DNA of 32,669 nt from assembly GCA_035650735.1 (NCBI GenBank), contig DASRGZ010000111.1, positions 1 through 32,669 of the forward strand, given 5' to 3'. This DNA is from Chthonomonadaceae bacterium (lineage in GTDB: Bacteria > Armatimonadota > Chthonomonadetes > Chthonomonadales > Chthonomonadaceae). Position numbers and translations under genes: made by a program. The number at the start of each line of letters is the position of its first letter. Within the stretch, counting starts at the first letter, position 1. Below the pieces are notes generated by a model. That model was not told where the DNA came from, made no database searches, and was given only the letters and a program-made list of their open reading frames with translations. Of this stretch, positions 5,844 through 30,943 are shown one piece after another.

Positions 5844-5867
5844 AAATAGCCCTCACCCCCGCCCTAA

Positions 5868-5889
5868 AGCGGCAGGGTTTAGCCTGCCG
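5868..5889. repeat. REP-like 22-bp hairpin AGCGGCAGGGTTTAGCCTGCCG, copy 1 of 3
   Basis: Same sequence at 29931-29952 and with one change at 9341-9362; 7-bp stem CGGCAGG/CCTGCCG. Confidence 0.85.
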
Positions 5890-5910
5890 GGAGAAGGGAG
5901 CTTCTCTCTT

Positions 5911-9237: not shown

Positions 9238-9340
9238 AGCCTCTCCCCTCCCGACAAAGCGACTAAGCGGCGGCTCCGGCAACTCCGGTCACGCTTTCCA
9301 CGCGCCCGCGCAGGCGGGCGACCGGCGCGAAGCGCCCCCT

Positions 9341-9362
9341 AGCGGCAGGGTTCAGCCTGCCG
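9341..9362. repeat. REP-like 22-bp hairpin, copy 2 of 3
   Basis: AGCGGCAGGGTTCAGCCTGCCG between convergent genes. Confidence 0.85.
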
Positions 9363-9422
9363 CGAACAGGAGAGCAAAGCGCCTGAGGGAAAAGGCTCTT
9401 AGCCGGGCGGTTGGCAGGCGGT

Positions 9423-11835: not shown

Positions 11836-12142
11836 CCTGACCCCCCGGCCCCGGTGGCCCTCACCCCCTGTCCCCCTCTCCCACGCTGCGGGAGAGGGGG
11901 AACGAGAAGCCTGCGCCTTTCTCCCCTCTCCTGAAATTGGAGAAGGGACAGTAAGGAAGGAGAGAACCCGGCTTCTGCTCCCCTTCTGCCTTGCAGGGAG
12001 AAGGGACGGGGATGAGGGTAGAGAAGGGAGTACGAAAGAACCTAAGAGTGAGGACCTCTCCCCTCTCCGTAGCGCCGGGAGAGGGGAGGGGGTGCGGGCG
12101 ACCCTACTCCCTACACCCTAAACGAGGGGATGGGGTGGGGGC
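11836..12142. repeat. Cluster of CCCTCACCCC/CCCTCTCCC...GGGAGAGGG palindromic repeats
   Basis: Several hairpins (e.g. CCCCCTCTCCC...GGGAGAGGGGG). Contains an inverted copy of the AGGGGAG...AAGCCGGGT motif seen at ~13365 and ~14515. Confidence 0.75.
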
Positions 12143-13330: not shown

Positions 13331-13470
13331 CGACCTCACCTCCGGCTCCACTTCTACTCCAGGAGAGGGGAGAAGAGAAGCCGGGTCCCTCCCTTCCCTT
13401 GTAGGGTCGCTAGGCGGAGGGGCGAACCATTGCAGCCCCGACCCTAGCAGTGGGGGCCGGGGGGTTAGGT
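13331..13470. repeat. Composite palindromic intergenic element, same family as 14331-14668
   Basis: Shares AGCCGGGTC...CCCTTCCCTTGTAGGGTCGCTAGG and CGAACCATTG.AG..CCGACCCT.GCAGT with the 14.5-kb element. Confidence 0.8.
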
Positions 13471-13492
13471 GACCTAGAGAGGAAGTTTCGCC

Positions 13493-14119
13493 TTGACATC
13501 CGTACTGAGCGGGACCGAGATTAAAGCACGCATGCGCGAGGAGTTCCCGGCCAAACTCGTCATTACTCCGATACTCAACGCCGCGCAGCAGATCCCCGAC
13601 CACGCCGCTGCCGTAGATTTGCGCCTGGGGCCGCAGTTCATCGTGGCGAAGCGGTCGCATTTTTCCGAGATTGATGCGCGCGACGCCGCCGCGCTCTCCA
13701 CCGTCTACCAATCGCAGGAGCATTTCGATGTCGGCATGGAGGGCGAGATCGTCATCCATCCACAGCAGTTTTTGCTCGCGGCCACGCTAGAGTACCTGCG
13801 CATTCCGATGGATCTGACCGGCTCGGTCATCGGGCGGTCGTCCTGGGGGCGCATCGGCCTCATCATCGCCACCGCCACCGCCGTCCACCCCGGCTTCACA
13901 GGCTGCCTGACCCTGGAGCTGCAAAACCTGGGCGACACGCCCATCGTACTCCACCCCGGCACCCGGATTGCTCAGATCGCCTTTTATAAAGTGGACGCCG
14001 ACCCCAACATCGTTCCCCCCAACGTCTTCCGCGCCAAATACGTCGCCGCCATCGGCCCGGAGATCAGCCGCCTCGGCAACGACGCCGATTGGAGGGTGAT
14101 CAACCGTCTGAAGCGGTGA
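13493..14119 (+). CDS. dcd: dCTP deaminase (trimeric dUTPase-like fold), divergent clade
   Basis: VDLRLG, F.LAATLEY, GRSSWGR.GL, HPGF.G.LTLEL.N, IAQ motifs; TTG start after an AGAGGA RBS. Confidence 0.85.
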   Translation: MTSVLSGTEIKARMREEFPAKLVITPILNAAQQIPDHAAAVDLRLGPQFIVAKRSHFSEIDARDAAALSTVYQSQEHFDVGMEGEIVIHPQQFLLAATLEYLRIPMDLTGSVIGRSSWGRIGLIIATATAVHPGFTGCLTLELQNLGDTPIVLHPGTRIAQIAFYKVDADPNIVPPNVFRAKYVAAIGPEISRLGNDADWRVINRLKR

Positions 14120-14254
14120 CGCTACCGCCTCTCGCCGGTATAACCAATTATAACCAAAGGGAGTGCAGCCTGCGTCGTGGGCGCGGCAAAGCGCGCCCAC
14201 CTCGCTGGCTGCGATCTTATCATCTGAGCCCCCACGCTCCTTCGGGGTGCGCGG

Positions 14255-14710
14255 TTAACCTAACCCCTCGGCCCCTCGCGCAGGGGGTAGGGGATAGGGG
14301 GTAGGGTGTAGGGGGTAGGGTGTAGAGTCGCCCTCACCCCCTATCCCCCTATTGCCAGGGTCGGGGCTCAACGGACTGCTAGGGTCGGGGCTACAATGGT
14401 TCGGGCCACTGCTAGGGTCGCCGGAGATACGGCCTCCGGCTCCGCCTCGCGACACCTGGCGACACGGCTCTGCCTTGCGAGAGCCCTCCGCCTAGCGATC
14501 CCCAACAACAGGAGAGGGGAGAGCAAAAGCCGGGTCTCCCCTTCCCTTGTAGGGTCGCTAGGTGTCGCGAGGCGGAGGGCTCTCGCAAGGCGGAGGCCCG
14601 AACCATTGTAGCGCCGACCCTTGCAGTCCATTGTAGCCCCGACCCTGGCAGTGGGATGGGGGTGAGGGCCGCTTCCCTCTCCTTCTCAAGGAGAGGGATC
14701 GGGGGTGAGG
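14255..14710. repeat. Large nested imperfect palindrome (core 14331-14668) preceded by a G-run tract
   Basis: The left arm CCCTCACCCC...TGCCAGGGTCGGGGCT...GGACTGCTAGGGTCGGGGCTACAATGGTTCGGGCC is the near reverse complement of the right arm 14595-14668. Confidence 0.85.
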
Positions 14711-17789: not shown

Positions 17790-17980
17790 GCCCACCCCTA
17801 AAGGGATGGGCTGTGTCGCAAGGCGGAGGCCCGAACCGCTGTCGGGCCGACCCTTGCAGCGGGCAAGCCCGCTCAAGCGGGCTGCCATAGGTTGGTCAGT
17901 CCCTTTCAGGGGCTACAAGAAGGAAGGTTAGCCCCCTTCAGGGGGCTTGCCGCCCACAGCCCGGTCCTCTAGGGCCGGGT
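17790..17980. repeat. BIME-like array of about five AGCCC...GGGCT hairpins with an embedded unit of the 14.6-kb repeat family
   Basis: Hairpins at 17790-17811, 17866-17883, 17898-17914, 17930-17947, 17958-17980; TCGCAAGGCGGAGGCCCGAACC shared with ~14583-14604. Confidence 0.8.
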
Positions 17981-18328: not shown

Positions 18329-19690
18329 ATGGAGGTTACCGCCGAGCAGACCGATCCCTGCACGATAGTGCTGGACATCTCCCTCGATGAGCAGCAGGTC
18401 GCGCGCACCTTCGATAGCGTCTATCGCGAGTTCAGCCGCTATGCCAATATTCCTGGCTTTCGCCCCGGCAAAGCCCCCCGCGCCATCGTGGAGCGCTTTG
18501 TCAACCCGGAGAAGGTGCGCGAGCGCGCCCTGGAAAAGCTGATCTCTGATAGCTACTTCAAAGCGATCCAGGAGGAGGCCATTGAGCCTTATCGCGAGCC
18601 GCGCATCGAGCCGACCGACCTGGAAGACAAAAAGCCCTACACCTACAAAGCCATTGTGCCGCTGGAGCCGCAGGTCACACTGGGCGAATACACCGGCCTG
18701 ACGGTCGAAAAACCCGTCTACACGATCACCGAGGCGGATGTAGACCGCGCCATTGAGCGCCTGCGGGAGGGCCGCGCCCGCCTGGACCGGGTCACGGATC
18801 GCGGCGTAGAGGAGGGCGACGTCCTTATCGCCGAGCTTCAGGCCGCCGTGGAGGGCGAGGAGAATCCCCAGCCGGCCCGCCGCCAACTCGTCCAGGTCGG
18901 CCAGAACTCCATCCCCGGCTTCGACCAGGCGGTCATGGGCATGATGCCGGGCGAGGAGCGCACCTTCGAGGCCGCTTATCCCGAAGATCATCCCGACGAG
19001 AACCTGCGCGGCAAGAAGGTGACCTATACCGTCCGGCTCAGCAGCATCAGCGCCAGAAAGCTGCCGGAACTCAACGATGAGTTCGCCAAGCAGGTGGCCG
19101 GCGTGGATACCGTCGAGGAGCTGCGCCAGCGCATCCGTGAGCGCGAAGAGCGCGGCGCCAGCGAGCTCTCCAACCAGATCGCCGAGGGCCGCCTGATCCA
19201 GGAGATTGTCAACCGTGCCACTATCCACTTCCCGGAGGTTCTGGTGCAGGAAGAGGTGGAGGCGCAGTTCCGTCAGTTAGCCTCTGAGCTGCGCCAGCGC
19301 GGCATGACCTTTGAGCAGTACCTGGCTCAGACCGGCCAGACAGCAGAGCAGTATCAGCAGGCGGTGCGGGAGCAGGCCGTGGAGCGGCTGCGCAGCGTCC
19401 TGGCCCTGCGGGAGATCGCCCGGCAGGAAGGGCTGGAGGTGGCCGACGAACAGATAGACGCCGAGTTCGACCGCCTGCTCAACGAGGGCAAAATCTCCGA
19501 AGAGGATTACGAGCGCTACAAAGACAATCGAGGCAGCCGCCTGCGCATCGCTAACGAGCTGGTGCGCGAGCGCCTGCACGATTTTCTGTTTGCCAACAAC
19601 AACATCCAGGAGGTCGCTGCGCCTACCGCGCCCGACCCAGCAGAGCTAGAAGCTGCCAGCGCCGAAGCGGAAGCCGAAAGCCAGGAATAG
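18329..19690 (+). CDS. tig: Trigger factor
   Basis: IPGFRPGKAP ribosome-binding signature, FKBP-like domain (IPGFDQ...GM), tig-clpP-clpX synteny. Confidence 0.96.
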   Translation: MEVTAEQTDPCTIVLDISLDEQQVARTFDSVYREFSRYANIPGFRPGKAPRAIVERFVNPEKVRERALEKLISDSYFKAIQEEAIEPYREPRIEPTDLEDKKPYTYKAIVPLEPQVTLGEYTGLTVEKPVYTITEADVDRAIERLREGRARLDRVTDRGVEEGDVLIAELQAAVEGEENPQPARRQLVQVGQNSIPGFDQAVMGMMPGEERTFEAAYPEDHPDENLRGKKVTYTVRLSSISARKLPELNDEFAKQVAGVDTVEELRQRIREREERGASELSNQIAEGRLIQEIVNRATIHFPEVLVQEEVEAQFRQLASELRQRGMTFEQYLAQTGQTAEQYQQAVREQAVERLRSVLALREIARQEGLEVADEQIDAEFDRLLNEGKISEEDYERYKDNRGSRLRIANELVRERLHDFLFANNNIQEVAAPTAPDPAELEAASAEAEAESQE

Positions 19691-19720: not shown

Positions 19721-20332
19721 ATGGATCGTATCATTCGTCCGCCTCAGAACGTTATTCCGATGGTCGTCGAGCAGAGCGCGCGCGGCGAGCGCGCCTACGA
19801 TATCTACTCGCGCCTGCTCAAGGATCGGATCATTTTCATCGGCGATGTCGTCACCGACCACCTTGCTAACCTGGTGATCGCGGAGATGCTCTTCCTGGAG
19901 AAGGAAGACCCCGACGCCGATATTGATGTCTACCTCAACAGCCCCGGCGGCAGCGTCTCGGCGGGCCTGGCGATGTACGATGTGATGCAGATGGTCAAGT
20001 GCGACGTGGCGACCATCTGCGTGGGCATGGCCGCTTCGATGGGAGCGGTCTTGCTGGCGGGGGGCACCGCCGGAAAGCGCTATGCCCTGCCCAACTCGCG
20101 CATCATGATCCATGCCGTCGCGGGCGGCTTCGAGGGGCCGGTGCAGGACGCCGAAATCCGCCTCAAAGAGATGGTGCGCGCGCACGACACCCTGAACGAA
20201 ATCCTGGCCCGGCATACCGGCCAGCCCTACGATAAGGTGCGCCGCGATATGGATCGCGACTACTTTATGTCCGCGCAAGAAGCCCTGGAATATGGAATAA
20301 TTGACAAAATAGCGGAGAAAGGCGAGCGCTAG
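19721..20332 (+). CDS. clpP: ATP-dependent Clp protease proteolytic subunit
   Basis: [33 protein letters not shown] (Ser), RIMIH (His), DRDYFMSA (Asp). Confidence 0.97.
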
Positions 20333-20453
20333 ACCGATAATCCAGTGACGAACCGAGGGAGTGGAAAATCTGCTCCCTCGTTTTCACGGAGAAGCAGGAA
20401 AATCGCGTCCTGGCAGCGAACGCTTGGGACGATACTGTTCAGGGGGTACTACC

Positions 20454-21737
<1,284 letters not shown>

Positions 21738-21758
21738 TCCCAAACAGCAAAGCAAAAC

Positions 21759-22018
21759 AAACCACCCGCTAACGCTAGAGGCACAGAGGCACAGAGGAAA
21801 AGCCATACGGAGAAAAGCAAAGAGAAAGAGAATAAAGATCAGAGTTTTAGGCAGGATAAACGGGATGAACCGGATTTCAAAAACCCATACAAGCCTTGCC
21901 TCTCTCCTTGTGTAATCCCGTAAATCCTGTTCATCCTGTCCAAAGGCTTTTGTCTTTGTCTCTTTTGTTTTTCTCCGTGTGGCTTTTCCTCTGTGCCTCT
22001 AGCGTTAGCGGGTGGTTT
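21759..22018. repeat. Nested long inverted-repeat (MITE-like) element between convergent clpX and tkt
   Basis: AAACCACCCGCTAACGCTAGAGGCACAGAGG on the left is the exact reverse complement of the right end. A second inner pair GGCAGGATAAACGGGAT / ATCCTGTTCATCCTGTC lies inside. Confidence 0.88.
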
Positions 22019-23870
22019 ATTTTCTCTTGACGGCTTTGACGGCGGCAACGATATGGGGCGCGCTGATGCCGACGTCATCCATCAACTCCTCCGGTTTGCC
22101 CGAACCGGGCATTTTGCTGACCCCCAGCCGCGTCACGTTCGGGGGCGGGCCGCCCGGCCCGCTGAAGACCTCCTGCACGGCGTCGCCCATGCCACCCTGC
22201 GGCCAGTGATCCTCGACCACGATCAGGTTGCCCCCGCACTCCTGCGCCGCCTTCTTGAGCGTGTCCGCGTCAATCGGCTTGACGGAGTAGAGATCGATCA
22301 CACGGATGTTGATTCCCTCCGACTGAAGCGTAGCATGGGCTTTCAGGGCCTCATGGAGCGTGATGCCCGCCGCAATGACCGCCGCCGCGTCGTTATCCGA
22401 TTGCCGCAGGGTCTTGCTGCCGCCAATGGGGAAGCTCTCGCCCGGGCCGTAGAGCACCGGCGTCTTCTCGCGGGTGGTGCGCATGTAGCAGATGCCGGGG
22501 CGGGTGGCCATCTGCGCCGTCAGGTGTACGGTGGTGGTGGCGTCGGAGGGATACAGGACGGTGCTGCCATAGACGGCGCGCATCATCGCCAGGTCTTCCA
22601 GGGCCATCTGGGACGGCCCGTCCTCGCCGATGGAGACGCCCGCGTGCGAGCCGGTCAGGCGGAGGTTGGCCTGGGAGATGGCGGCCATGCGGATCTGGTC
22701 GTAGGCGCGGGTGAAGAAGGCGGCGAAGGTGGAGGCGAACGGATTTTTGTGCATCACTTGCAGGCCCACCGACGCGCTGACCATCTGCTGTTCGGCGATA
22801 AAGATCTCAAAGAACCGCTCCGGGTACGCCTTCTTAAACTTGTCGGAGAAGGTGGAATTGCTGACCTCCCCATCCAGGGCAACCACGTTGGGCTTGGCCG
22901 CGCCCAGGGCTTTGAGCGCATCGCCGTAGGCTTCGCGCGTGGCGATCTTTGCGCCGACCTCATACTGTGGGGGCTGGTAGGTGCCGGGCGCTCCCAGGTC
23001 TGCGGGCGTTCCCTCGCGCGGCGGCTTGGGCTTTACGACGATGTTGCCGGACGGGTTGCCCAACTCCGCCAGCGCCTTCTCCGCATCGGCGGGAGGCAGC
23101 GCCTTGCCGTGCCAGTTTTCCTGGTTTGCTATCAGCGAGACGCCCGCGCCTTTGATGGTCTTGGCGATGATACAGACGGGCCTTTCGGCGGAGTTCTCGG
23201 CCTCGGTATAGGCTGCGTTGATCTGGCCGAAGTCGTGGCCGTCAATCTGAATGGCGTGCCAGCCGAAGGCGCGAGCGCGCTCGGCATAGACCTCGCCATG
23301 CCACTCCAGCATGGTCGGCCCACGCTGGCCCAGACGGTTCATATCAAGAATGGCGATGAGGTTGTTGAGTTGATAGTAGCCGCCTAGCTCGAAGGCTTCC
23401 CAAATGCTTCCCTCGGCCATCTCGCTATCGCCCAGCAGCACCCAGACCTTCAAGGGCAGCTTATCCAGCCGTTTGGCGCTCAAGGCCATGCCCACGCCCG
23501 TCGGAAGGCCCTGGCCCAGCGACCCGGTGGCGACATCCACCCAGGGCAGCGCCGGAGTGGGGTGGCCCTCCAGTCGGCTGCCGAACTTGCGCAGGGTCAT
23601 CAGCTCCTCATCGGAGATCGCTCCGGCGGCCTTGAAGAGCGCGTAGAGCAGGGGAGAGGCGTGGCCCTTAGAGAAGATCAGGCGGTCGTTGCGGAGGTTG
23701 TCGGGATCGTTGAAATCGTAATGCAGGTGATCTGCCAGCAGTACGGCCATCAGGTCCGCCGCCGACAGGCTGGAGCTTGGGTGTCCGGAACCAGCGGCGG
23801 TGGTGCAGCGGATGCTATCGGCGCGCAGCTGCGTGGCCAGGTCTTTCCATTCTTGCGGCGTGTGTCCCAT
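22017..23870 (-). CDS. tkt: Transketolase (617-aa type)
   Basis: AGSGHP, FSKGHA, LEGHP, ATGSLGQG, ThDP motif GDSEMAEG...N, IAEQ, GEDGPSQ. Confidence 0.95.
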   Translation of the reverse strand: MGHTPQEWKDLATQLRADSIRCTTAAGSGHPSSSLSAADLMAVLLADHLHYDFNDPDNLRNDRLIFSKGHASPLLYALFKAAGAISDEELMTLRKFGSRLEGHPTPALPWVDVATGSLGQGLPTGVGMALSAKRLDKLPLKVWVLLGDSEMAEGSIWEAFELGGYYQLNNLIAILDMNRLGQRGPTMLEWHGEVYAERARAFGWHAIQIDGHDFGQINAAYTEAENSAERPVCIIAKTIKGAGVSLIANQENWHGKALPPADAEKALAELGNPSGNIVVKPKPPREGTPADLGAPGTYQPPQYEVGAKIATREAYGDALKALGAAKPNVVALDGEVSNSTFSDKFKKAYPERFFEIFIAEQQMVSASVGLQVMHKNPFASTFAAFFTRAYDQIRMAAISQANLRLTGSHAGVSIGEDGPSQMALEDLAMMRAVYGSTVLYPSDATTTVHLTAQMATRPGICYMRTTREKTPVLYGPGESFPIGGSKTLRQSDNDAAAVIAAGITLHEALKAHATLQSEGINIRVIDLYSVKPIDADTLKKAAQECGGNLIVVEDHWPQGGMGDAVQEVFSGPGGPPPNVTRLGVSKMPGSGKPEELMDDVGISAPHIVAAVKAVKRK

Positions 23871-23907
23871 AAAGATATCTCCTCTCGTCCCGAAGGGATA
23901 AGTAAGT

Positions 23908-23998
23908 CTGGATTGGAGCTTACCTTAAATACGCTGGGGATACCCCTGCTGCTCCAGGGAGTCTATCAAGCCTGGATCAGAGCTTACCTTAAATACGC
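23908..23998. repeat. Two 27-bp direct repeats (19-bp identical core GAGCTTACCTTAAATACGC), 64-bp period, upstream of tkt
   Basis: Copies at 23908-23934 and 23972-23998. Confidence 0.9.
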
Positions 23999-24124
23999 CG
24001 GTTTTTGTGGCGAGTTGCCCGCAAATGCACAGGGAAGAACGCAGACAGAGTGCGGCAGCGGCGGGGGACGCCACAGAGAGCGGCGTCGGCAGGGCGTGTG
24101 GTGAGGGGGTGACGGCGCCGGGGG

Positions 24125-24589
24125 CTAGCGCCGATGGAAAGCCTCAAAAGCCTGCTGAAGCTCAGGAAGCAGCGTCGTGCTATCTACGGGCTTGAGGATA
24201 TAGCCGCTGGTGCCGATCTGCTGCGCTTCCGCCTGGTAATCCGAATAGGCGCTGAGGATGATAACGCAGGTTCGGAATGCGGACAGGATACGCCGGGCCG
24301 CTTCGAGGCCGTTGAAGGCGCCGGGCATCTGAATATCCATCAGCACGATATCCGGACGCTCCTGCAGGGCCAGCGCGACCCCTTTTTCCCCGTTGACGGC
24401 GGAGCCTACGACATGCAGGCCGGCGCGCGTCAGCATCCGGCGCAGGTGCATCTGCGTGATGCCCTCATCTTCGACGATGATCACGCGCTTGCCAACCAGG
24501 GACACGGAGGGGCTGGAATGGGCCGGTTCGGCCTGAGGCGGCGATCCAGGGGATTGCGTATCGAAGACAAAGAGATGCGATATTGTCAT
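24125..24589 (-). CDS. Stand-alone response regulator receiver domain (CheY-like)
   Basis: IVEDE, LMDIQMPG (phospho-Asp), LSAY, ILKP; no output domain. Confidence 0.9.
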   Translation of the reverse strand: MTISHLFVFDTQSPGSPPQAEPAHSSPSVSLVGKRVIIVEDEGITQMHLRRMLTRAGLHVVGSAVNGEKGVALALQERPDIVLMDIQMPGAFNGLEAARRILSAFRTCVIILSAYSDYQAEAQQIGTSGYILKPVDSTTLLPELQQAFEAFHRR

Positions 24590-24804
24590 AGCGTATCTTT
24601 CTGAAATGGGGTGTAGGCCAGCCTGCGCTGGGTTGGCCGGGAGCCTGACGGTCCTGGGAAGGATGGGGGCAAGAGACGTCTCGCGTCAAGTTCACCAGGA
24701 ATATTATCGGCATTCCCACCGGGTTTCTATAGGGCAAGAAGGCAGGCACACGCCCGCAAGGCGGGAGAAGGAAGGCTGAAAGGAGTCAGGACTTTTCTTC
24801 CTCC

Positions 24805-25752
24805 TTATCTCCAGTCGGGCCGCATGGCATGGCCCCAGCCCAGCGTATGGGCGTCCGGCAGGCTGGAGGCCGCGTCGGGCATACGCCCGGCCTGGAAGAG
24901 CGCGCCGCATTGAAAGTATACCGCATCCATGTCGGAATGCCAGCCAGGATAGTGGCCGAAGCCGCCATCGTCGTTGCGGCAGCGCAGGGCCCAATCGGCG
25001 GCGCGCTCGATAGCGGCGCGGCAGCGCTCCGAGCCGCCGCCCAACTGCCGCAGAATGAACAGGGCGTCGAAGCAGGCGTGGACGTCCCAATCCGGCGCTT
25101 TGATGTGCCATCCACCGTCGGGCGCCTGGTCGCGCAGCGTCCGCTCCACCATCTCCGCCGCACGCGGCGTCGGCTCTCCGACGAGTCGGAAGAAATGGGC
25201 CATGTGAAAGGTCGCCGCCACGTGGTCGCCTAGGTAGCCGTCCGCCGTCTGATGCGCCTGCATATGCGCGCTGAGAGCCTGCCGGTATGCCTCCGGAAAG
25301 GGCGCATCCGACGCGGCGTAAAATAGCGGGAAAAAGCTGGTGGTGTACCAGGGCAGGCGCTGGAAGGCGTTCCCCTCAAAGAAGCGATCCATCACACCCA
25401 CCGGAGAGATAGGGGGCCGTTCGCCGAGCGCGCGCAGCCCGACGACGCCCTGCGTCGTGTTATAGAGCACAGCCAGGTCGCTCTGGGGGGCGAAGCTGCC
25501 CTCCAGATTGCGGAAGGAGCCGTCCGGCTGCTGGTGGCGCCGGAAAAAGTCGGCGGTGGCCGCTTTGTCGGGCAGTTCCCGCCCCAGAGAGTGGGCGAGA
25601 ACGGCGGCATAGGTCGCTGCTGCCAGATCGCTGGCGCGGGTGTCGGAGTTGCCGGGATAGGCTGGGTCAGGCGAGGGCGCGTAGCCGCCATCCTCTCGAC
25701 GGCAGCGCAGAATAAAATCGTAGGTCGTCTCAAGAAGTGGGGTATCCTGCAT
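24805..25752 (-). CDS. Prenyltransferase/squalene-oxidase repeat (alpha/alpha-barrel) protein
   Basis: Repeated Q..DG(G)W/F motifs (CRREDGGY, HQQPDGSF, DQAPDGGW, CRNDDGGF); ATG 25752 after GGGGAGG. Confidence 0.82.
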   Translation of the reverse strand: MQDTPLLETTYDFILRCRREDGGYAPSPDPAYPGNSDTRASDLAAATYAAVLAHSLGRELPDKAATADFFRRHQQPDGSFRNLEGSFAPQSDLAVLYNTTQGVVGLRALGERPPISPVGVMDRFFEGNAFQRLPWYTTSFFPLFYAASDAPFPEAYRQALSAHMQAHQTADGYLGDHVAATFHMAHFFRLVGEPTPRAAEMVERTLRDQAPDGGWHIKAPDWDVHACFDALFILRQLGGGSERCRAAIERAADWALRCRNDDGGFGHYPGWHSDMDAVYFQCGALFQAGRMPDAASSLPDAHTLGWGHAMRPDWR

Positions 25753-25939
25753 CCTAATCCTCCCCTTGCTTCCCTCTATCGCGGAATTTGCCGATAGGCG
25801 CCCGCACAACGATCCCTTTAGAGTGGCCGCGCGCCTCGATAATCGCGCTGATAGTGACGATTCTTGTGAGCCAGTTTGTTCTATTACGAAGATCGGGCCG
25901 CCCATGCAGGCGGCATGAGCGGCCCAACTTCGCGCGCCC

Positions 25940-26083
25940 TCAGGCCGCTTTGCCGATCTTGACCATCTTGGTTCCGCAGGTAGGGCAGGTGCCAGTCGTG
26001 GCGGGCTTGCCGTTCTTGAGAGTAGTGGCCGTCGGGTTCTGCATCTCTTTCTTAGACCTGCACTTCATGCAATAGCCTTCCAT
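25940..26083 (-). CDS. DUF5679-like 47-aa zinc-ribbon protein (absent from the ORF track)
   Basis: MEGYCMKCRSKKEMQNPTATTLKNGKPATTGTCPTCGTKMVKIGKAA; two CxxC motifs; AAGGAGG RBS. Confidence 0.9.
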   Translation of the reverse strand: MEGYCMKCRSKKEMQNPTATTLKNGKPATTGTCPTCGTKMVKIGKAA

Positions 26084-26333
26084 CGCTTGCTTCCCTCCTT
26101 TCCAAACACGTTATCAATCTATATTTAGCGATGATTTCCTCCAATTCCTCCTAGATATGGGCTTTTTCCGAAAATTTAGGAAAAAAAGTCCTGTCCATCC
26201 CTCTCCGGCACGGCAGAAAAGCGGGGAAGGGTGGAGTTCACCGGGTAGAGTAGCCCGAATTTTGCGGGGTCGCTTCAGGAATAGCCGTTCCTATTGACGA
26301 ATAGAACGCAAAATTCGCAGGAGAGTTCCCGTT

Positions 26334-27524
26334 ATGAAGATTACGGAGATCCGCCCGATTGTGACCTGCCCGGGGCGCAACTACGTTTTCGTCAAGATCT
26401 TCACCGATGAGCCCGGTCTGTACGGCGTCGGAGAGGGCACCTTGAACGGCAGCGAGACGATTGTCGCCGAGGCGATCCGCCATATTTCACATCTGCTCCT
26501 CGGGCGCGACCCCCAGCGCATCGAGGACCTCTGGCACCTGGTTTACCGGCAGGGCTACTGGCGCGGCGGCCCCATCTTCATGGCGGCGCTGGCCGCCATT
26601 GACATCGCCCTGTGGGACATCAAGGGCAAGCAGGCCAATCTGCCGGTCTATCAACTGCTGGGCGGCAAGGCGCGCGACGGCGTGATGTGCTACAGTCACG
26701 CGCATGGGCGCGACGCCATCGAGTGTGAAGACCACGCGCGGCGGCTCATGGGGCAGGGCTTCAAGGTCGTGCGCTGCCAGGTCGGGCCGTATGGGGGCGC
26801 GGGCGTCCTGGGCCACAAAGACCCGATCACCCCCGGCACGCCGGCGGAACAGATCTACGAGCCGACGCCCTATCTGCTGAGCGTGCCCAAGCTGTTTGCG
26901 CATCTGCGGGAAAAGCTCGGACCGGATATCGAGTTGTTCCATGACGCCCACGAGCAGTTGGCTCCTATCGAGGCGGCGCGGCTGGCAAAGGAACTCGAAC
27001 CCTTCCGGCTGTTCTTCCTGGAAGATCCGCTGATGCCGGAGCATCGGGAGTCCTGGCCCCTGTTGCGTGCGGCCTCCACGACCCCGCTCGCCATCGGCGA
27101 GATCTTCACCTCCCGCTGGGACTGCCTGCCGCTGTTTATGAATAGATGGATTGACTTCATTCGCATCAAGCCGCTGCACGTCGGCGGCCTAACCGAAGCC
27201 CGCAAGATCATGACGCTTGCCGAGCCTTTCAACGTGCGCAGCGCCTTTCATGGGGCCGCCGACATCGGCCCGGTGGCGCAGGCGGCCTCGATCACCCTGC
27301 AATCGGTCATCCCTAACTTCGGCGTGCAGGAGTGGACGCGCTTCCCGGAGCCTGCCTATGAGGTCGTCTCCGGCATCTGTAAGATGGAGAACGGGTTCGC
27401 CCACCCGAACGAGACGCCCGGCCTCGGCGTAGATGTAGATGAGGAGAAGGCGGTGCAGCATCCGTATCAGCGCGCCTTCATGCCGCTCGTCCGCCGCGCC
27501 GACGGCTCCATGCACGTCTACTGA
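26334..27524 (+). CDS. Enolase-superfamily acid-sugar dehydratase (mannonate dehydratase/RspA-like subgroup)
   Basis: PGRNYV.VKI.TD..G.GEGTLNG, YWRGGP, ALWDIKGK...LPVYQLLGG, metal ligands HD.HE / LEDP / GE, FHG..D, QE. Confidence 0.9.
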   Translation: MKITEIRPIVTCPGRNYVFVKIFTDEPGLYGVGEGTLNGSETIVAEAIRHISHLLLGRDPQRIEDLWHLVYRQGYWRGGPIFMAALAAIDIALWDIKGKQANLPVYQLLGGKARDGVMCYSHAHGRDAIECEDHARRLMGQGFKVVRCQVGPYGGAGVLGHKDPITPGTPAEQIYEPTPYLLSVPKLFAHLREKLGPDIELFHDAHEQLAPIEAARLAKELEPFRLFFLEDPLMPEHRESWPLLRAASTTPLAIGEIFTSRWDCLPLFMNRWIDFIRIKPLHVGGLTEARKIMTLAEPFNVRSAFHGAADIGPVAQAASITLQSVIPNFGVQEWTRFPEPAYEVVSGICKMENGFAHPNETPGLGVDVDEEKAVQHPYQRAFMPLVRRADGSMHVY

Positions 27525-27551
27525 AATACGAACGGAAAGGACTTTGCTTGT

Positions 27552-27761
27552 ATGGCTGCGACGTTACAGGCGCATTGCCCGGCGATCCATTGCGAAGGCT
27601 GCGCCAATGCGATAAAACGCTCCCTCGGCAAGTTGGCCGGGGTTCATAGCGTGGAGGTAGACATCCCGGGCAAGAATGTGACCGTGCAATACGATGAGGC
27701 GCAGGTCGGTCCTGGCGCCATTCGCGAACGGCTGCTTCAAGCCGGTTTTGCGCCGGAGTAG
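27552..27761 (+). CDS. Heavy-metal-associated (CopZ-like) chaperone
   Basis: IHCEGC metal-binding motif in a 69-aa HMA-like sequence. Confidence 0.88.
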   Translation: MAATLQAHCPAIHCEGCANAIKRSLGKLAGVHSVEVDIPGKNVTVQYDEAQVGPGAIRERLLQAGFAPE

Positions 27762-27775
27762 AGGAGGACAGGGCG

Positions 27776-28318
27776 TTGCTGAAGGGCGAGAAGGTTATTC
27801 TGCGCGCCATTGAGCGGGAAGACTTGCCGCGCCTGTGTCAGTTCAATAACGACGTAGAGGTCGAGCTGGCGGGCATCGGCGATCCTCCCTTGCCGCAGGC
27901 GCTTGCCCGCTTGCAGGCAGAATTCGATCAGCAGGTCAGCAAGGGTGGGCGTGACGCTCCCTGGTTTGCCATTGAAGCCGACGGCAAGCTGATCGGCCCA
28001 TGCGCGCTGCATCGGTTCGATGAGATCGCCAGGACATGCGAACTGGGCATCGGCATCGGCGACAAGGTGTACTGGGGGCGCGGCTACGGGCGGGACGCCA
28101 TCCGCCTGCTGCTCCACTGGGCGTTCCGTTACCGCAACGTGCTCAAGGTCTGGCTGACAACGATGGCGACCAACGAGCGCGCTCTGCGTGCCTATCGCGC
28201 CTGCGGATTCGTGGAGGAGGGCCGCCTGCGCGAACATGCCTGGAGCGATGGCAAGTATGTAGATCTGGTCTATATGGGCATACTGCGCGATGAGTGGGAG
28301 CGCCAGGGGAGCGGATAG
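27776..28318 (+). CDS. GNAT acetyltransferase, RimJ/RimL-like
   Basis: LRAIEREDL, ELGIGIGDK.YWGRGYG, NERALRAY..CGFVEEG.LR. Confidence 0.92.
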   Translation: MLKGEKVILRAIEREDLPRLCQFNNDVEVELAGIGDPPLPQALARLQAEFDQQVSKGGRDAPWFAIEADGKLIGPCALHRFDEIARTCELGIGIGDKVYWGRGYGRDAIRLLLHWAFRYRNVLKVWLTTMATNERALRAYRACGFVEEGRLREHAWSDGKYVDLVYMGILRDEWERQGSG

Positions 28319-28329
28319 GAGGAGAGGCA

Positions 28330-29250
28330 ATGGCAAGCGCTTCTGGACGGATAGAGGGCCGCTGCGTACTCTGCGGCAAAACGCGCGAACAGGTCAAGAA
28401 ACTGATCCTGGGCGTGCATGGGGGCGTGTGCCTGGATTGCGTCGAGCTCTGCAACGACATCCTGCGCAGTGAGGGGCAGAGCACGCAGCCGAAGACGGCA
28501 GAGCCTACCCATCCGCCAACCGGCAAAGTGGCGATTGTGACCGGGGCCTCGCGCGGCATCGGCGCGGCGATTGCCAGGCGGCTGGCAAGGGATGGCGTGG
28601 CGGTCGTCGTCAACTACAACCGCAACGCGGAGGCTGCCGGGAAGCTCGTCGCCGAGATTGAGGCGAGGGGCGGGGCGGCGGTGGCTATCCAGGCGGATGT
28701 CGGCGTGCAGGAGCAGATTACGCAGATGTTCGCGCAGACGATGGAACGCTACGGACGGCTGGATATTCTGGTCAATAATGCGGGCGTAGCGGAGTTCCGT
28801 CCCCTGGAAGCGATAGATGAGGCCGATTTCCATCGCCAGTTCATTGTGAACGTGGGCGGCGTGCTCTTTGCCACGCAGGAGGCGGCGCGCTGCATAGGGA
28901 AGGAGGGCGGACGCATCATCAACATCACTTCGGGCGCGGCGCAGGCGGCCCCGCCCAGAACCTCGGTCTACAGCGCGACCAAAGCGGCGGTCCAGGCCAT
29001 GACCCGCAGCCACGCCGCCGAACTCGGCCCGCGCAACATCACCGTCAACGCCGTCGCGCCCGGCCCGACGGAAACCGATATGCTCCGGGAGGTCATTCCG
29101 CCGGAGCAGCAGCGCGTTATGATCGAGATGACGGCCCTGCGCCGCCTGGGTACGCCGGAAGACATCGCCGACGTGGTCGCATTCCTCGCCTCCGAGGAGG
29201 CCCGATGGGTGACCGGGCAGGTGATTGGCGTTAGTGGCGGACTGATCTGA
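28330..29250 (+). CDS. Short-chain dehydrogenase/reductase with an N-terminal ClpX C4 zinc-binding domain
   Basis: Residues 7-50 are identical to the local ClpX; then TGASRGIG, NNAG, YSATK, VAPG motifs; AGGAGG RBS before ATG 28330. Confidence 0.92.
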   Translation: MASASGRIEGRCVLCGKTREQVKKLILGVHGGVCLDCVELCNDILRSEGQSTQPKTAEPTHPPTGKVAIVTGASRGIGAAIARRLARDGVAVVVNYNRNAEAAGKLVAEIEARGGAAVAIQADVGVQEQITQMFAQTMERYGRLDILVNNAGVAEFRPLEAIDEADFHRQFIVNVGGVLFATQEAARCIGKEGGRIINITSGAAQAAPPRTSVYSATKAAVQAMTRSHAAELGPRNITVNAVAPGPTETDMLREVIPPEQQRVMIEMTALRRLGTPEDIADVVAFLASEEARWVTGQVIGVSGGLI

Positions 29251-29497
29251 TACCGCGTGATCGGCGCGTTCGGGAACCTCGCGTCTCTGCTGCCCGTCCC
29301 ATGATCGATTCGGGATACTTCATCGTACCCTGTCCCTCGCCTGGTGGCATGGCATGAAAGCGTGGTTGCCTCTCTCGCCAATTCCCTCGTAAACCACGGT
29401 GGCGCGAGGCGCTGCTTCTCGCATTGCCGGGAGGAGGGAACGGTTCCTCTCCGCCAGGTAAGGAACGGCCAGGGAGGGTTCCTATAGGAGCAGCAGA

Positions 29498-29908
29498 ATG
29501 CAAAAGACGGATCAGCGGGAAGGCGCGCAGGCCAATGCGGATACATGGGTGTCCGGCGGGCCAGGTCCTACCGAGGGGAAGGGCGTTATCGGTACCGGGG
29601 GCGTGGCTGAGAGAACCAGCATTACCGGCGAGGTAATGGAGGGATTGCGGGAGGAGGCTGGCCGCCACCCCGGCTTTGATGATGATATACGCGGCGTGGG
29701 AGCGACGGGCGGGGTTATCTCCGGCGAAATGTCAGGCCCGACGGGCGGTATGGGCTATACGGGCGGCGTTGGAATGCCGAACAAGGCGCTGGAAGGCCCC
29801 TTCCACGGCGTAGAGGACACCGCCGATGGCGAGCTAACCGGCGCTCCGCCAAACCAACCCAAGACAGGCGAACAGCCGCCTGAAAATGCGAATCCTGCCG
29901 AGCAGTGA
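29498..29908 (+). CDS. Gly-rich acidic hypothetical protein
   Basis: 136-aa ORF with AGGAG RBS; low-complexity and hydrophilic. Confidence 0.65.
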   Translation: MQKTDQREGAQANADTWVSGGPGPTEGKGVIGTGGVAERTSITGEVMEGLREEAGRHPGFDDDIRGVGATGGVISGEMSGPTGGMGYTGGVGMPNKALEGPFHGVEDTADGELTGAPPNQPKTGEQPPENANPAEQ

Positions 29909-29930
29909 TTGACTTCACCTCCGGCCCCAC

Positions 29931-29952
29931 AGCGGCAGGGTTTAGCCTGCCG
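29931..29952. repeat. REP-like 22-bp hairpin, copy 3 of 3
   Basis: Identical to 5868-5889; between convergent genes. Confidence 0.85.
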
Positions 29953-29968
29953 GGTAAGGTGTGAGGCG

Positions 29969-30943
29969 CTACCCGTTCACCGGGCCGTAGTAGAGGCCGC
30001 GCGCCTGCGCCAATCGCCGGCCAATGGCAAGCAGATCGCTCCGCTCGGCGGCGGAGAGCGGTGTGTAATGGCGCGCGGCCTCGGCAGCCTGCTTGACTTC
30101 CTCCGCATTGCTCAGGCCGATGACCGCGCAGGCCACGCCCGGTAGGCCGAGCGAGTAGCGAATGGCGCGGGAGTGATATTCGGCTAGCGTGCCGGGCGTC
30201 TTCCCATCGTACTGCCAGTTCTTCGCGCCGCCCAGCACTTTCATGGCAACAACGGCGGTGCCATGCTGCTGTGCGACGGGCAGCACCAGCCCCTCAAAAT
30301 CGTAGTTGTGGCGGTCGGCGAAGTTGAGCGCGTTCATCGTCAGGTCAATATCGCCGGTGGCAATGGCCGTGGCGAAGCGCTGCGGGCGCATGTGGCCGCT
30401 CGTGCCGATAAAGCGCAACAGACCCCGCTCCCGCGCCTCCTTCAGGCCGGCGATGGCCCCATCGGGCGTGAACAGCCGATCCATATCGAAGTCGCCCAGG
30501 TTATGGATATGCACGGCATCCACCTGAGCCACGCCCATGCGCTTCAGGCTCTCCTCCACCTGCCGCTGCACGCCCTGGCGATCCTGGCGGTCCGGGTTGA
30601 CCTTAGTCACGAGGAACAGGCCCTCGCGCCGAGTCTTGAGCACGCCTTTGAGCTTGTCCTCCGCGTTGCCGTAGTCGGGCGACACATCAATGTAGGTGAT
30701 CCCCTGATCCAGGGCGGCATGGACGACGGCCTCAGCCTGGGCGGTGGTCGTGTTGTTGCTGCCGAGGGGAGCCATGCCGATCCCGAGGATCGAAACCTTC
30801 TCTTTTGTGCGCCCCAGAACGCGCCGGGGCAGCGTGCCCTCCTGGTCGGCAGCGGAGCTCGCCGTTTCGGCCAGGCTGAGCGTAGTAAGGCTGCCTGCCG
30901 CGACGGCAGTGCCTTTCAGGAAATTACGTCGGCTGATTTGCAT
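29969..30943 (-). CDS. Aldo/keto reductase with a Tat signal peptide
   Basis: SRRNFLK Tat motif; LGRT...VS.LG.G, YID.SPDYG, LVTK, SLKRM...D..HIH, AMK.LGG. Confidence 0.9.
   Translation of the reverse strand: MQISRRNFLKGTAVAAGSLTTLSLAETASSAADQEGTLPRRVLGRTKEKVSILGIGMAPLGSNNTTTAQAEAVVHAALDQGITYIDVSPDYGNAEDKLKGVLKTRREGLFLVTKVNPDRQDRQGVQRQVEESLKRMGVAQVDAVHIHNLGDFDMDRLFTPDGAIAGLKEARERGLLRFIGTSGHMRPQRFATAIATGDIDLTMNALNFADRHNYDFEGLVLPVAQQHGTAVVAMKVLGGAKNWQYDGKTPGTLAEYHSRAIRYSLGLPGVACAVIGLSNAEEVKQAAEAARHYTPLSAAERSDLLAIGRRLAQARGLYYGPVNG

Follow-up and report, generated by a model that had tools for sequence, protein, structure and literature searches.

Probable gene conversion between clpX and a ClpX-type zinc-binding domain fused to an SDR enzyme in a Chthonomonadaceae bacterium

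We analyzed a 32,669-nt stretch of DNA from a soil bacterium of the Chthonomonadaceae (assembly GCA_035650735.1, contig DASRGZ010000111.1, positions 1 to 32,669; hereafter the window). Judged by its open frame and domain profiles, one gene in the window is a real gene of two domains, a ClpX-type C4 zinc-binding domain (ZBD) and an intact SDR of the glucose-1-dehydrogenase subfamily, with a flexible linker of 15 residues between them. Both parts of the encoded protein, P0002, are known; their combination is new. The ZBD tract is nearly identical to the corresponding part of the resident clpX, and this near-identity is probably kept up by DNA copying between the two genes. The account that explains most combines two readings, and we hold the pair to be somewhat better than an even bet. 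The evolutionary reading, which we consider likely from sequence comparison, is that an older fusion recently underwent gene conversion of its ZBD with clpX. The functional reading, that the ZBD would serve as a ClpX-like docking head on the dehydrogenase, is tentative.

The gene (306 aa) was delimited by open frame, Pfam and NCBIfam and occupies 28330..29250 of the plus strand, stop codon included. A Shine–Dalgarno sequence, GGAGGAG (28318..28324, plus strand), read directly from the DNA, ends 5 nt short of the ATG and shares a base with the TAG stop codon (28316-28318) of the GNAT gene upstream. Four segments follow on the same strand: a diverged leader, MASASG (28330..28347), which corresponds to (M)SRAFD in clpX; a presumably homogenised tract of ZBD codons 7-50 (28348..28479), recognized by its near-identity to clpX 20472-20603; a Pro/Thr-rich linker of residues 51-65 (28480..28524); and a classical SDR domain (28525..29247), placed by its motifs and its best solved relative. 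Pfam reports zf-C4_ClpX (PF06689) at residues 11-46 with 43.1 bits against a cut-off of 27 (46.4 bits in the whole-genome scan). In the translation, the Cys ligands are C12, C15, C34 and C37, a CxxC...CxxC arrangement that aligns with the Cys pairs of 1OVX. That structure, a solved ZBD dimer of E. coli, was matched by phmmer with E = 1.6e-9. Two E. coli residues reported to be essential for trigger-factor action, Phe16 and Ile46, align with hydrophobic Leu and Ile/Leu in P0002. Pfam found no AAA match in P0002, the SDR taking the place of the AAA+ module after the ZBD; by this domain content, P0002 is not a ClpX paralogue. A profile scan of the whole genome found exactly two ZBDs.

The SDR contains TGASRGIG (residues 71-78), NNAG (149-152), S201 and YSATK (214-218), as aligned to PDB 4mow. 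The cofactor motif TGxxxGxG and the catalytic set N-S-Y-K are complete, and the former makes a preference for NADP(H) likely. Pfam adh_short_C2 covers residues 72-305 (224.8 bits), and the protein exceeds the cut-off of NCBIfam NF005559, a glucose 1-dehydrogenase subfamily (246.4 versus 215 bits). The best solved relative, 4mow (E = 1.2e-61), is annotated as glucose 1-dehydrogenase. No NCBIfam equivalog model was passed, so the profiles do not fix the substrate. Taken with Pfam, the 306-aa frame and GGAGGAG, these data bear out the domain call, the in-frame fusion, the separate ribosome-binding site and the intact SDR of a first-pass annotation of this DNA.

The resident clpX (20454..21737, plus strand; 427 aa, P0001) starts with TTG and follows tig (18329-19690) and clpP (19721-20332), the latter lying between the other two. 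A gene caller placed the start of clpX inside the zinc finger. The partner tract in clpX (20472..20603, plus strand) is in direct orientation, 7876 bp upstream of the copy. Directly upstream of the P0002 gene is the GNAT acetyltransferase gene (27776..28318, plus strand; Pfam Acetyltransf_3, E = 2.7e-23), and the two genes probably form one operon; in another genome, G023, the GNAT orthologue shares a contig with an unfused SDR. A ManD/galactonate-dehydratase-family enolase gene (26334..27524, plus strand; NCBIfam NF011654, cut-off 430, scored 457.6 bits) gives the locus, by its family assignment, a sugar-acid context. A promoter and terminator scan of 26000-30000 returned no promoter-like site and a single terminator-like one, located within the SDR gene on the minus strand; shuffled sequences gave more.

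The tract at 28348-28479 aligns without gaps to clpX 20472-20603, with 128 of 132 bases identical. The four differences, 28368 G/A, 28422 A/G, 28428 C/G and 28470 C/T, fall in codons 13, 31, 33 and 47 (GTG/GTA, GGA/GGG, GTC/GTG and AGC/AGT) and are all synonymous, so that all 44 residues are shared. The first-pass annotation had described just this match, and the alignment confirms it. The flanks fall to chance-level identity (14/40 bases upstream, 18/60 downstream), which puts the match itself far beyond chance; the linker downstream is without clpX homology, differing at 42 of 60 bases. Both tracts begin at codon 7, behind leaders (LSRAFD from the TTG at 20454, MASASG from the ATG at 28330) that are identical at 11 of 18 bases. 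Related but altered leaders, with each block starting six codons in, had also been noted before, correctly. The leader differs at 7/18 bases versus 4/132 in the core (Fisher p = 2.7e-5), and its identity is above the chance rate of 0.32 (p = 0.010; p = 0.024 without the start codon), though with a flank of only 18 bases this is modest evidence of an older flank.

Between the two copies dS is 0.137. For the resident clpX against that of a same-genus genome, G001, it is 0.63 in the core and 0.80 over the whole gene. Synonymous sites are therefore free to change. The copies are 4/132 bases apart, whereas clpX of this genome and clpX of G001 differ at 19/132; other family members differ at 18-43 of 132. 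Thus, ZBD tracts within the genome are more alike than orthologous clpX tracts between close genomes, the pattern by which gene conversion is recognized.

Could the junction itself be an artifact? The genome is a metagenome-assembled one in 224 contigs with 3.36% contamination, and mis-assembly at the repeat might have joined a ZBD to an SDR. We regard such a chimera as extremely improbable. The copy has its own four differences, its own leader and its own ribosome-binding site. The first-pass annotation had proposed a check across 28300-28550; there, a 226-nt contig from another study (X7) covers 28311-28536 with 0 differences. Positions 27546-29300 are covered without a break in X1, possibly the source sample itself. 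In two further studies (X5 and X6), Logan contigs run into the tract from either side; their only breaks lie in its identical core, at 28398/28440, mirrored at clpX 20522/20564. Contigs that end within the repeat are compatible with a chimera. From the GNAT side, however, they reach 28398, beyond the copy-specific base 28368, and from the SDR side the X5 contig starts at 28440, before the copy-specific base 28470, and the X6 contig at 28540. Word depth is similar over the clpX and SDR pieces (10.7-14.9 in X5), and fused proteins are present in other data sets. X5 and X6 are DNA data sets, and no RNA data set is listed as containing the sequence. The ZBD–SDR junction is independently assembled. 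As a practical warning, 130-bp twins of this kind break short-read contigs.

Among the 120 best homologues listed for P0002, PF06689 is carried by three: P0002 itself, P0003 (318 aa) and P0004 (334 aa). The last two are metagenomic proteins of the same build, so the zf-C4_ClpX plus SDR architecture, for which the first-pass annotation had suggested a search, does occur elsewhere. The three SDR domains are pairwise identical at 74.0%, 73.6% and 77.7%, and fall in a 10-row cluster of a 131-row SDR tree, with P0003 and P0004 as sisters (support 98/86). P0002 is weakly placed in this tree. On the best free tree the fused label needs two changes, and the three proteins group together in only 1% of 200 bootstrap trees; yet an AU test does not reject a single clade of fused SDRs (p = 0.748), and a search constrained to that clade scores 8.96 lnL better than the free one. 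Linkers measure 15 residues in P0002 and about 27 and about 43 in the others, with no significant similarity among the three (of 2000 shuffles, 966, 1410 and 457 scored at least as high in local alignment). Both P0003 and P0004 open with a ClpX-like MSRAFD. These comparisons support a fusion that predates this species and is also present, at roughly genus-level distance, in two or more further lineages.

Searches beyond these homologues returned no further fusion of this kind. None was found in G001 (89% complete), whose best SDR belongs to a different family branch. Contig scans of metagenomes and genomes for the DNA of P0003 and P0004 gave distant SDRs and ClpX genes only (80 loci each), none fused. 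A 334-aa frame with a ZBD, on contig C267 of genome G059, resembled P0004 but proved to be clpX truncated where the contig stops. In a 50% identity library, not one of the 150 best cluster representatives matched query residues 1-42, the part with the zinc ribbon, and among 40 relatives no SDR match started before query residue 41. Across 67 further genomes of the order, none of the frames opened joined a second ZBD to an SDR-like length (a 383-aa frame of G033 was left out).

P0004 offers a parallel to P0002. Its ZBD core differs from that of one ClpX, P0129, at 1 of 39 residues, with the next-nearest ClpX 4 away, compared to 10/39 from its SDR sister P0003 and 6/39 from P0002. P0004 and P0129 share lineage-specific substitutions (E23, E36 and a C-terminal ..IIRSNA), and from their shared source pattern we infer that they come from one genome. 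P0129 is 87.4% identical to the resident ClpX (89.2% for ClpX of the same-genus G001). This second candidate case of concerted evolution concerns protein sequence only. The ZBD of P0003 is 7/39 from the nearest ClpX among the hits compared, suggesting either that homogenisation is not universal or that P0003's own ClpX is unsampled.

ClpX-type ZBDs also occur on other enzymes. In this phylum the partners include, from a census of 401 genomes (150 of 398 ZBD matches listed, hence a lower bound) and from homologue searches, a class II aldolase, an aldo-keto reductase with two ZBDs, an amidohydrolase_2, a PqqC/TenA-like protein, a DegT aminotransferase and a second SDR type. They share with P0002 the N-terminal position of the ZBD and the flexible linker. 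Eight fused proteins of the family all have the ClpX-like hydrophobic core (8/8) and the ClpX-like leader (8/8). Near-identity to the resident clpX is seen in P0002 and probably in P0004, and in no other of these fusions. The aldolase fusions, from four further genomes, stand 15-37 of about 114 bases and 5-9 of 39 residues away from the clpX that accompanies them, and on this comparison are ordinary diverged paralogues. A match to ClpX is therefore no general requirement, which weakens the argument for selected identity. Full-text literature searches found no paper on ZBD–enzyme fusions. A passage of PMC11119718 lists zf-C4_ClpX as an accessory domain of cyanobacterial sigma-70 factors, which in this respect resemble the fused enzymes.

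How, then, did the two tracts come to be so alike? Fused orthologues elsewhere, the match of P0004 to a different ClpX, and a leader more diverged than the core lead us to favor gene conversion of an older fusion. Conversion between directly oriented copies 7.9 kb apart would leave the 132-bp near-identity. The 3' edge of the converted tract would coincide with the end of homology at the domain boundary, and its 5' edge with codon 7, leaving the older, diverged leader outside. The first-pass annotation had called the domain recently copied. That fits the exchange of sequence with clpX, given the low dS relative to orthologues, but the fusion itself appears older, as judged from P0003, P0004 and the leader. 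A distinctly unlikely alternative is that clpX codons 7-50 were copied lately in front of this SDR, with P0003 and P0004 as separate captures. The dS of only 0.137 would suit such an event, as would the unequal, dissimilar linkers, the 1% of bootstrap trees uniting the fused SDRs, and the lack of a detected fusion in G001. Moreover, the clpX 5' end has been captured repeatedly in the family, by two SDR types, a PqqC/TenA-like protein and a DegT aminotransferase, and these four kinds of partner enzyme make independent fusions less far-fetched. Yet recent capture predicts a leader as similar as the core, contrary to what is seen, even though some similarity above chance persists in the leader. 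That one narrow SDR branch (10 of 131 tree rows) made three captures would be unlikely, while a single fused clade is not rejected and scores better. And recapture through homologous replacement would be gene conversion itself.

The first-pass annotation also read the four differences as suggesting purifying selection. The count stands: if all sites were free, the probability of 0/4 nonsynonymous changes would be ∼0.003. Assignment of these differences to one copy by means of 13 outgroup clpX genes was ruled out, the sites being saturated. Because the changes are unassignable and clpX is constrained anyway, they are a weak sign of selection on the ZBD copy. Better evidence of constraint, at the level of protein comparison, is that the independently diverged P0003 keeps the four Cys ligands and the Pfam match.

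What might the ZBD do on a dehydrogenase? In E. coli, the hydrophobic region of this known dimerisation domain binds SspB, RssB, trigger factor and lambda O, according to PMC7804408. The fused ZBD would equip the dehydrogenase with docking heads like those of ClpX. Because such SDRs mostly form dimers or tetramers, several heads per oligomer are likely. Heads identical to the ClpX N-domain would bind that domain's ligands, namely adaptor tails, trigger factor and lambda-O-type degrons; alternatively, they could form pairs with the ZBD of ClpX. In both cases the stability of the enzyme, or the client choice of ClpX, would come to depend on the other partner. Docking to ClpX or its adaptors, heterodimerisation included, is a plausible hypothesis. 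A predicted heterodimer of the P0002 and ClpX ZBDs scored 0.34, versus 0.00 for the best control, which lends weak support; a like complex (1OVX) is solved, and the pass may reflect the predictor's memory of it. The runs had 94% or more of their contacts in common, with a partner pLDDT of 63 or more. The mark used is reached by 51/78 solved complexes and 2/108 mismatched pairs; at scores of 0.60 or below it is reached by only 5/78 solved complexes, and all four passing mismatches (of 180) lie there.

A different reading, possible although we find it doubtful, is that the ZBD, unconnected with ClpXP, acts as a generic N-terminal module for dimerisation or for sensing zinc or redox state. Its identity to the ClpX domain would then have arisen neutrally, as nearby stretches of homologous DNA underwent gene conversion. 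An extra clamp could serve SDRs, aldolases and aldo-keto reductases, all of them oligomeric. The aldolase fusions, drifting from their own ClpX, speak for this reading, and so do the dimerising nature of the domain (PMC7804408) and its listing as an accessory domain on cyanobacterial sigma-70 factors (PMC11119718). However, the ClpX-like hydrophobic core and leader kept in 8/8 fused proteins would argue against it, and a domain identical to the ClpX head presumably could not avoid ClpX ligands in a shared cytoplasm. The docking-head reading can be taken further: ZBDs on metabolic enzymes would be a cis-encoded ClpX-docking tag, acting through mixed ZBD dimers or ligand competition, that ties turnover or ClpXP client choice to metabolism, with identity in the SDR lineage functionally required and kept by gene conversion. 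We think this extended version unlikely; if true, regulated proteolysis would gain a mode not described before, recurring in Armatimonadota.

The ClpX N-domain, a docking hub for adaptors and many substrates, has been studied almost only within ClpX. P0002 shows it as a portable module, which has been joined to ordinary enzymes repeatedly, in one phylum if not in more. If the fused heads meet ClpX or its adaptors, they would be natural decoys or self-tethering tags. In that case they would allow a direct test of the control that tethering alone exerts over ClpXP, and would offer a ready handle for targeted degradation.

Compared with the E. coli ClpX ZBD (1OVX), P0002 is alike in its C4 zinc ribbon, CxxC...CxxC, and in the hydrophobic positions of Phe16 and Ile46. 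It is unlike ClpX in that the ZBD precedes a dehydrogenase rather than the AAA+ module; zinc binding, ligand binding and dimerisation of P0002 are putative. The tethering adaptors of ClpXP (SspB, RssB, CpdR and trigger factor) dock on the ZBD dimer, as PMC7804408 describes. A ZBD-bearing enzyme could by analogy tether itself or compete for the adaptor site. The likeness would be functional: these adaptors bind a ZBD but contain none, and have no sequence relation to P0002. With the glucose 1-dehydrogenase/FabG SDRs (PDB 4mow and 3u5t) P0002 shares intact cofactor and catalytic motifs, but it differs from them by an extra N-terminal ZBD and linker of 65 residues. The tufA/tufB pair is a case of concerted evolution by gene conversion. 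In bacterial paralogues such as rRNA operons, as in our case, copies within a genome are closer than orthologues between genomes, and the tract is sharply bounded (see also PMC8022953 and PMC6002687). Unlike rRNA operons or tufA/tufB, the tract here is one 44-codon domain, held in common by the gene of an essential unfoldase and an otherwise unrelated enzyme gene, which makes it a clean, small example of probable concerted evolution between an essential and an accessory gene over a single domain.

The open frame at 28330-29250 (+) encodes a protein of 306 residues (P0002). A GGAGGAG element overlaps the stop codon of the upstream GNAT gene, and the ATG lies 5 nt downstream of it. Pfam places a ClpX-type C4 zinc-binding domain (ZBD; zf-C4_ClpX) at residues 11-46 (43.1 bits versus a cut-off of 27) and a full-length SDR at residues 66-305. 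NCBIfam assigns the SDR to the glucose 1-dehydrogenase subfamily (246.4 bits versus 215), with no equivalog; the cofactor motif and the catalytic Ser/Tyr/Lys are all kept, and the closest solved structure is 4mow. These features bear out the first-pass annotation, which had described an intact SDR fused in frame to a ZBD and preceded by its own RBS. The genome, a 6.5-Mb assembly of 224 contigs that finds its nearest named matches in the Chthonomonadaceae (Armatimonadota), has exactly two ZBDs.

The other ZBD belongs to the resident ClpX (P0001; 20454-21737, +). Positions 28348-28479 align without gaps to clpX positions 20472-20603, with 4 differing bases (28368, 28422, 28428 and 28470). Every difference is synonymous and falls at a third codon position, as had been noted for this 132-bp match, and all 44 encoded residues are identical. 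The pair is the longest direct repeat that a repeat search returned for the window (149 nt at 93%, including the six-codon leaders 5′ of each tract). Beyond it the two loci are unrelated, with 26/40 bases differing 5′ of the start codons and 42/60 differing 3′ of the tract. The database protein of this clpX (P0161, 415 aa) starts at an internal GTG, codon 13 (window 20454-20492), and thereby loses the first zinc ligand. TTG at 20454 gives instead an (M)SRAFD start, common to related ClpX proteins and to two metagenomic ZBD-SDR fusion proteins, P0003 and P0004.

To evaluate mis-assembly as the source of the ZBD-SDR junction, Logan contigs from four sequencing runs (X1, X5, X6 and X7) were mapped onto 20300-29300; the runs listed for this region included no RNA run. 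In X1, which may be the source sample, one contig runs across 27546-29300 with 0 differences. The first-pass annotation had called for reads that span the junction. In X7, from a separate study, a single contig of 226 nt (28311-28536) joins the RBS, ZBD and linker to the SDR, again with 0 differences. Contigs of X5 and X6 (two more studies) match the window identically over many kilobases and do break in the repeat, but only in its identical core (28398/28440 and the corresponding 20522/20564), as expected from a k-mer assembler. Word depth is alike over clpX pieces and SDR pieces (10.7–14.9 in X5). Given the spanning contigs, the expected position of the breaks and the similar depths, mis-assembly is very unlikely. 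Because X5 and X6 are soil metagenomes of two other studies, with 100% identical contigs of several kilobases each in the mapped region, the same strain appears to be widespread.

The window holds other repeats. Directly 3′ of clpX, at 21754-22023, are nested inverted repeats with arms of 41 and 37 nt that are 93–95% complementary, and contigs of X1, X5 and X6 have ‘opposite strands’ joints at 21803/21961 and 21845/21965. Such joints could mark a segment able to invert, or could simply be what an assembler makes of a long hairpin. Intergenic repeats of 38-44 nt form three families (D4-D6; 13360-14633, 17816-17859, 5860-5897, 9333-9370, 29923-29960 and 11889-11926), partly in inverted pairs (I1, I2 and I5), and look like REP-type elements. 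In the first ORF (213-1183), repeated coding units of 38 and 53 nt (D2 and D3) encode ..NNNGDGTF..-type repeats, which we take to resemble FG-GAP/VCBS-type repeats.

A search for P0002 homologues (8000 candidates scored) recovered the ZBD-SDR architecture that the first-pass annotation had proposed looking for: among the best 120 homologues listed, three carry a ZBD, namely P0002, P0003 (318 aa) and P0004 (334 aa). The N-termini of the latter two, MSRAFDRIDGRC, consist of the leader and a ZBD of the local ClpX type. Their linkers are longer than that of P0002, and the native N-terminal motif of the SDR (..LAGKVA) is still recognisable beyond; an alignment of the three linkers was sought, and they proved not alignable. 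Pairwise, the SDR domains of these proteins share 74.0%, 73.6% and 77.7% identity and are no nearer to each other than to their best unfused relatives. A 131-row tree placed all three within one 10-row cluster that includes seven unfused proteins (SH-aLRT 80). A 46-row tree pairs P0003 with P0004 (98/86) and does not resolve P0002; on it the fused label must change twice, and just 1% of bootstrap trees group all three. Yet a search constrained to keep them together beat the free search by 8.96 log-likelihood units and was not rejected (AU p = 0.748). A single origin is thus compatible with the SDR data, short of proof. No fused SDR was found in the 40 nearest genomes, where no SDR match begins before query residue 41, or in 67 other genomes of the order (leaving out a 383-aa frame in G033). 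A 334-aa ZBD frame in G059, considered as a fusion, was rejected as a truncated clpX. The upstream GNAT gene has an orthologue in G023, on one contig with an unfused SDR that bears a short Pro/Thr tail; the pairing of GNAT and SDR in one neighbourhood therefore predates the ZBD.

Several comparisons argue for recent sequence exchange between the fused ZBD and clpX. The two copies differ at 4/132 bases, versus 19/132 between this clpX and that of the same-genus genome G001, and 18–43/132 between it and other family members. By the Nei-Gojobori method, dS is 0.137 between the copies and 0.63 (core) or 0.80 (whole gene) between the two clpX orthologues. The orthologue values indicate that synonymous sites here are free to change, and the far lower value for the copies means that they last exchanged sequence far more recently than the genus arose. 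Where the tract ends also fits gene conversion. Its 3′ end is the end of homology, and the leader differs at 7/18 bases (Fisher p = 2.7e-5 versus the core), yet its 11/18 identity exceeds the flank expectation of 0.32 (p = 0.010; 0.024 without the start codon). The leader looks like an older homologous flank lying outside the last conversion.

The ZBD of P0004 differs from that of another ClpX, P0129, at 1/39 core residues, the last position. E23, E36 and ..IIRSNA are common to both and occur in no other ClpX among the matches listed, of which the second closest has 4 mismatches. By contrast, 10/39 residues separate the P0004 ZBD from the ZBD of P0003, the sister of P0004 in the SDR tree, and 6/39 separate it from that of P0002. 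We infer, from the source pattern alone, that P0004 and P0129 come from one genome. At the level of protein sequence, then, the P0004 ZBD seems to track its resident ClpX and not the SDR tree, a signature of gene conversion. Since P0129 and the G001 ClpX are 87.4% and 89.2% identical to this ClpX, the fused build would be common to lineages about as distant as the window genome and G001. The first-pass description of the ZBD as recently copied therefore holds for the last exchange with clpX; the fusion itself, its build shared with the P0003 and P0004 lineages, is probably old.

Were every one of the 132 sites free to change (S = 32, N = 100), the probability that none of four changes is nonsynonymous would be ∼0.003. 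Use of outgroups to assign the changes to one copy gave no assignment because the outgroups are saturated, and clpX itself is certainly constrained, so earlier caution about reading selection from four changes was right. The P0003 ZBD offers better evidence for constraint. Despite independent divergence at seven positions (at least 7/39 residues from any ClpX among the matches listed), it retains the four Cys ligands and its Pfam match.

ZBDs occur on other proteins as well. A search with P0002 residues 1-52 gave 169 matches, and eight non-ClpX proteins are among the 120 listed: the three fusions already described, a second SDR type (P0134, P0177), PqqC/TenA-like proteins (P0139, P0174) and a DegT-type aminotransferase (P0175). 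All eight have a ClpX-like leader, indicating capture of whole clpX 5′ ends. In a scan of the phylum, ZBDs were found in 351/401 genomes, with two in many; of 398 matches, 150 were listed and 20 loci opened. These include class II aldolase fusions in four genomes of one family (G292, G227, G328, G388; L209, L211, L212, L213), an aldo-keto reductase with two tandem ZBDs (G119; L215:644-1990) and an amidohydrolase_2 with a ZBD (G107; L210:770-1900). Four small membrane-anchored proteins of 108-127 aa, from four genomes, have a hydrophobic N-terminal segment followed directly by the ZBD (L207:1157-1540, L208:495-821, L217:1105-1431, L218:1052-1435). The remaining loci are one truncated and four ordinary ClpX, L214 (not parsed), and four mixed cases (two small proteins with a zinc ribbon, a clpX that runs off its contig and another that is probably frameshifted). 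A 95-aa frame in G056 (L222:457-744), with a clpX-type ZBD and then unrelated Arg-rich sequence, probably reflects a frameshift in clpX or faulty assembly. In two genera of the phylum, many genomes have open frames of ∼290-310 aa with a second ZBD. Two genomes of a single genus in the family of the window genome have small stand-alone ZBD ORFs ∼1 kb 5′ of clpX, one of ∼100 aa (G060; L045:2240-2542; zf-C4_ClpX, E = 2.6e-10) and one an open frame of 74 aa (G012:C1:4786348-4786440). The four aldolase-fusion ZBDs differ from their own genome's clpX at 15-37 of ∼114 bases, so homogenisation is special to the SDR case and no rule. Overall, a fusion that is probably old, its recent conversion and the repeated appearance of ZBDs on enzymes tell more than one recent copying event would.

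As described in PMC7804408, the ClpX ZBD forms dimers (1OVX), one hydrophobic region of it binds SspB, RssB, trigger factor and lambda O, and Phe16 and Ile46 are needed for the trigger-factor effect. On alignment to 1OVX, these positions are Leu and Ile/Leu in the fused ZBD. Being residue-for-residue identical to the resident ClpX head, the fused ZBD should bind whatever that head binds, and could pair with it. Prediction of the heterodimer gave weak support (0.34 versus 0.00 for the best control), which may reflect memorised structure because 1OVX is already solved; at least 94% of contacts agree between runs, with a partner pLDDT of at least 63. Of solved complexes 51/78 attained the mark, as did 2/108 mismatched pairs; passes with a score of 0.60 or below include only 5 of those 78 complexes and every one of the 4 passing mismatches (of 180).

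The mechanism we tentatively prefer is that a ClpX-like docking head may tie the SDR into the network around ClpXP, which would make it a self-tethered client, a decoy or an adaptor platform. Its main rival, which we rate slightly less likely, takes the ZBD for a generic module that dimerises or senses zinc and is unconnected with ClpX; sequence identity with ClpX would then be a neutral outcome of conversion. Searchable papers yielded no description of a ZBD-enzyme combination. The sole non-ClpX mention found comes from a catalogue in PMC11119718, which lists cyanobacterial sigma factors with a ZBD. The parts themselves are already known: the ClpX ZBD, the classical SDR and gene conversion.
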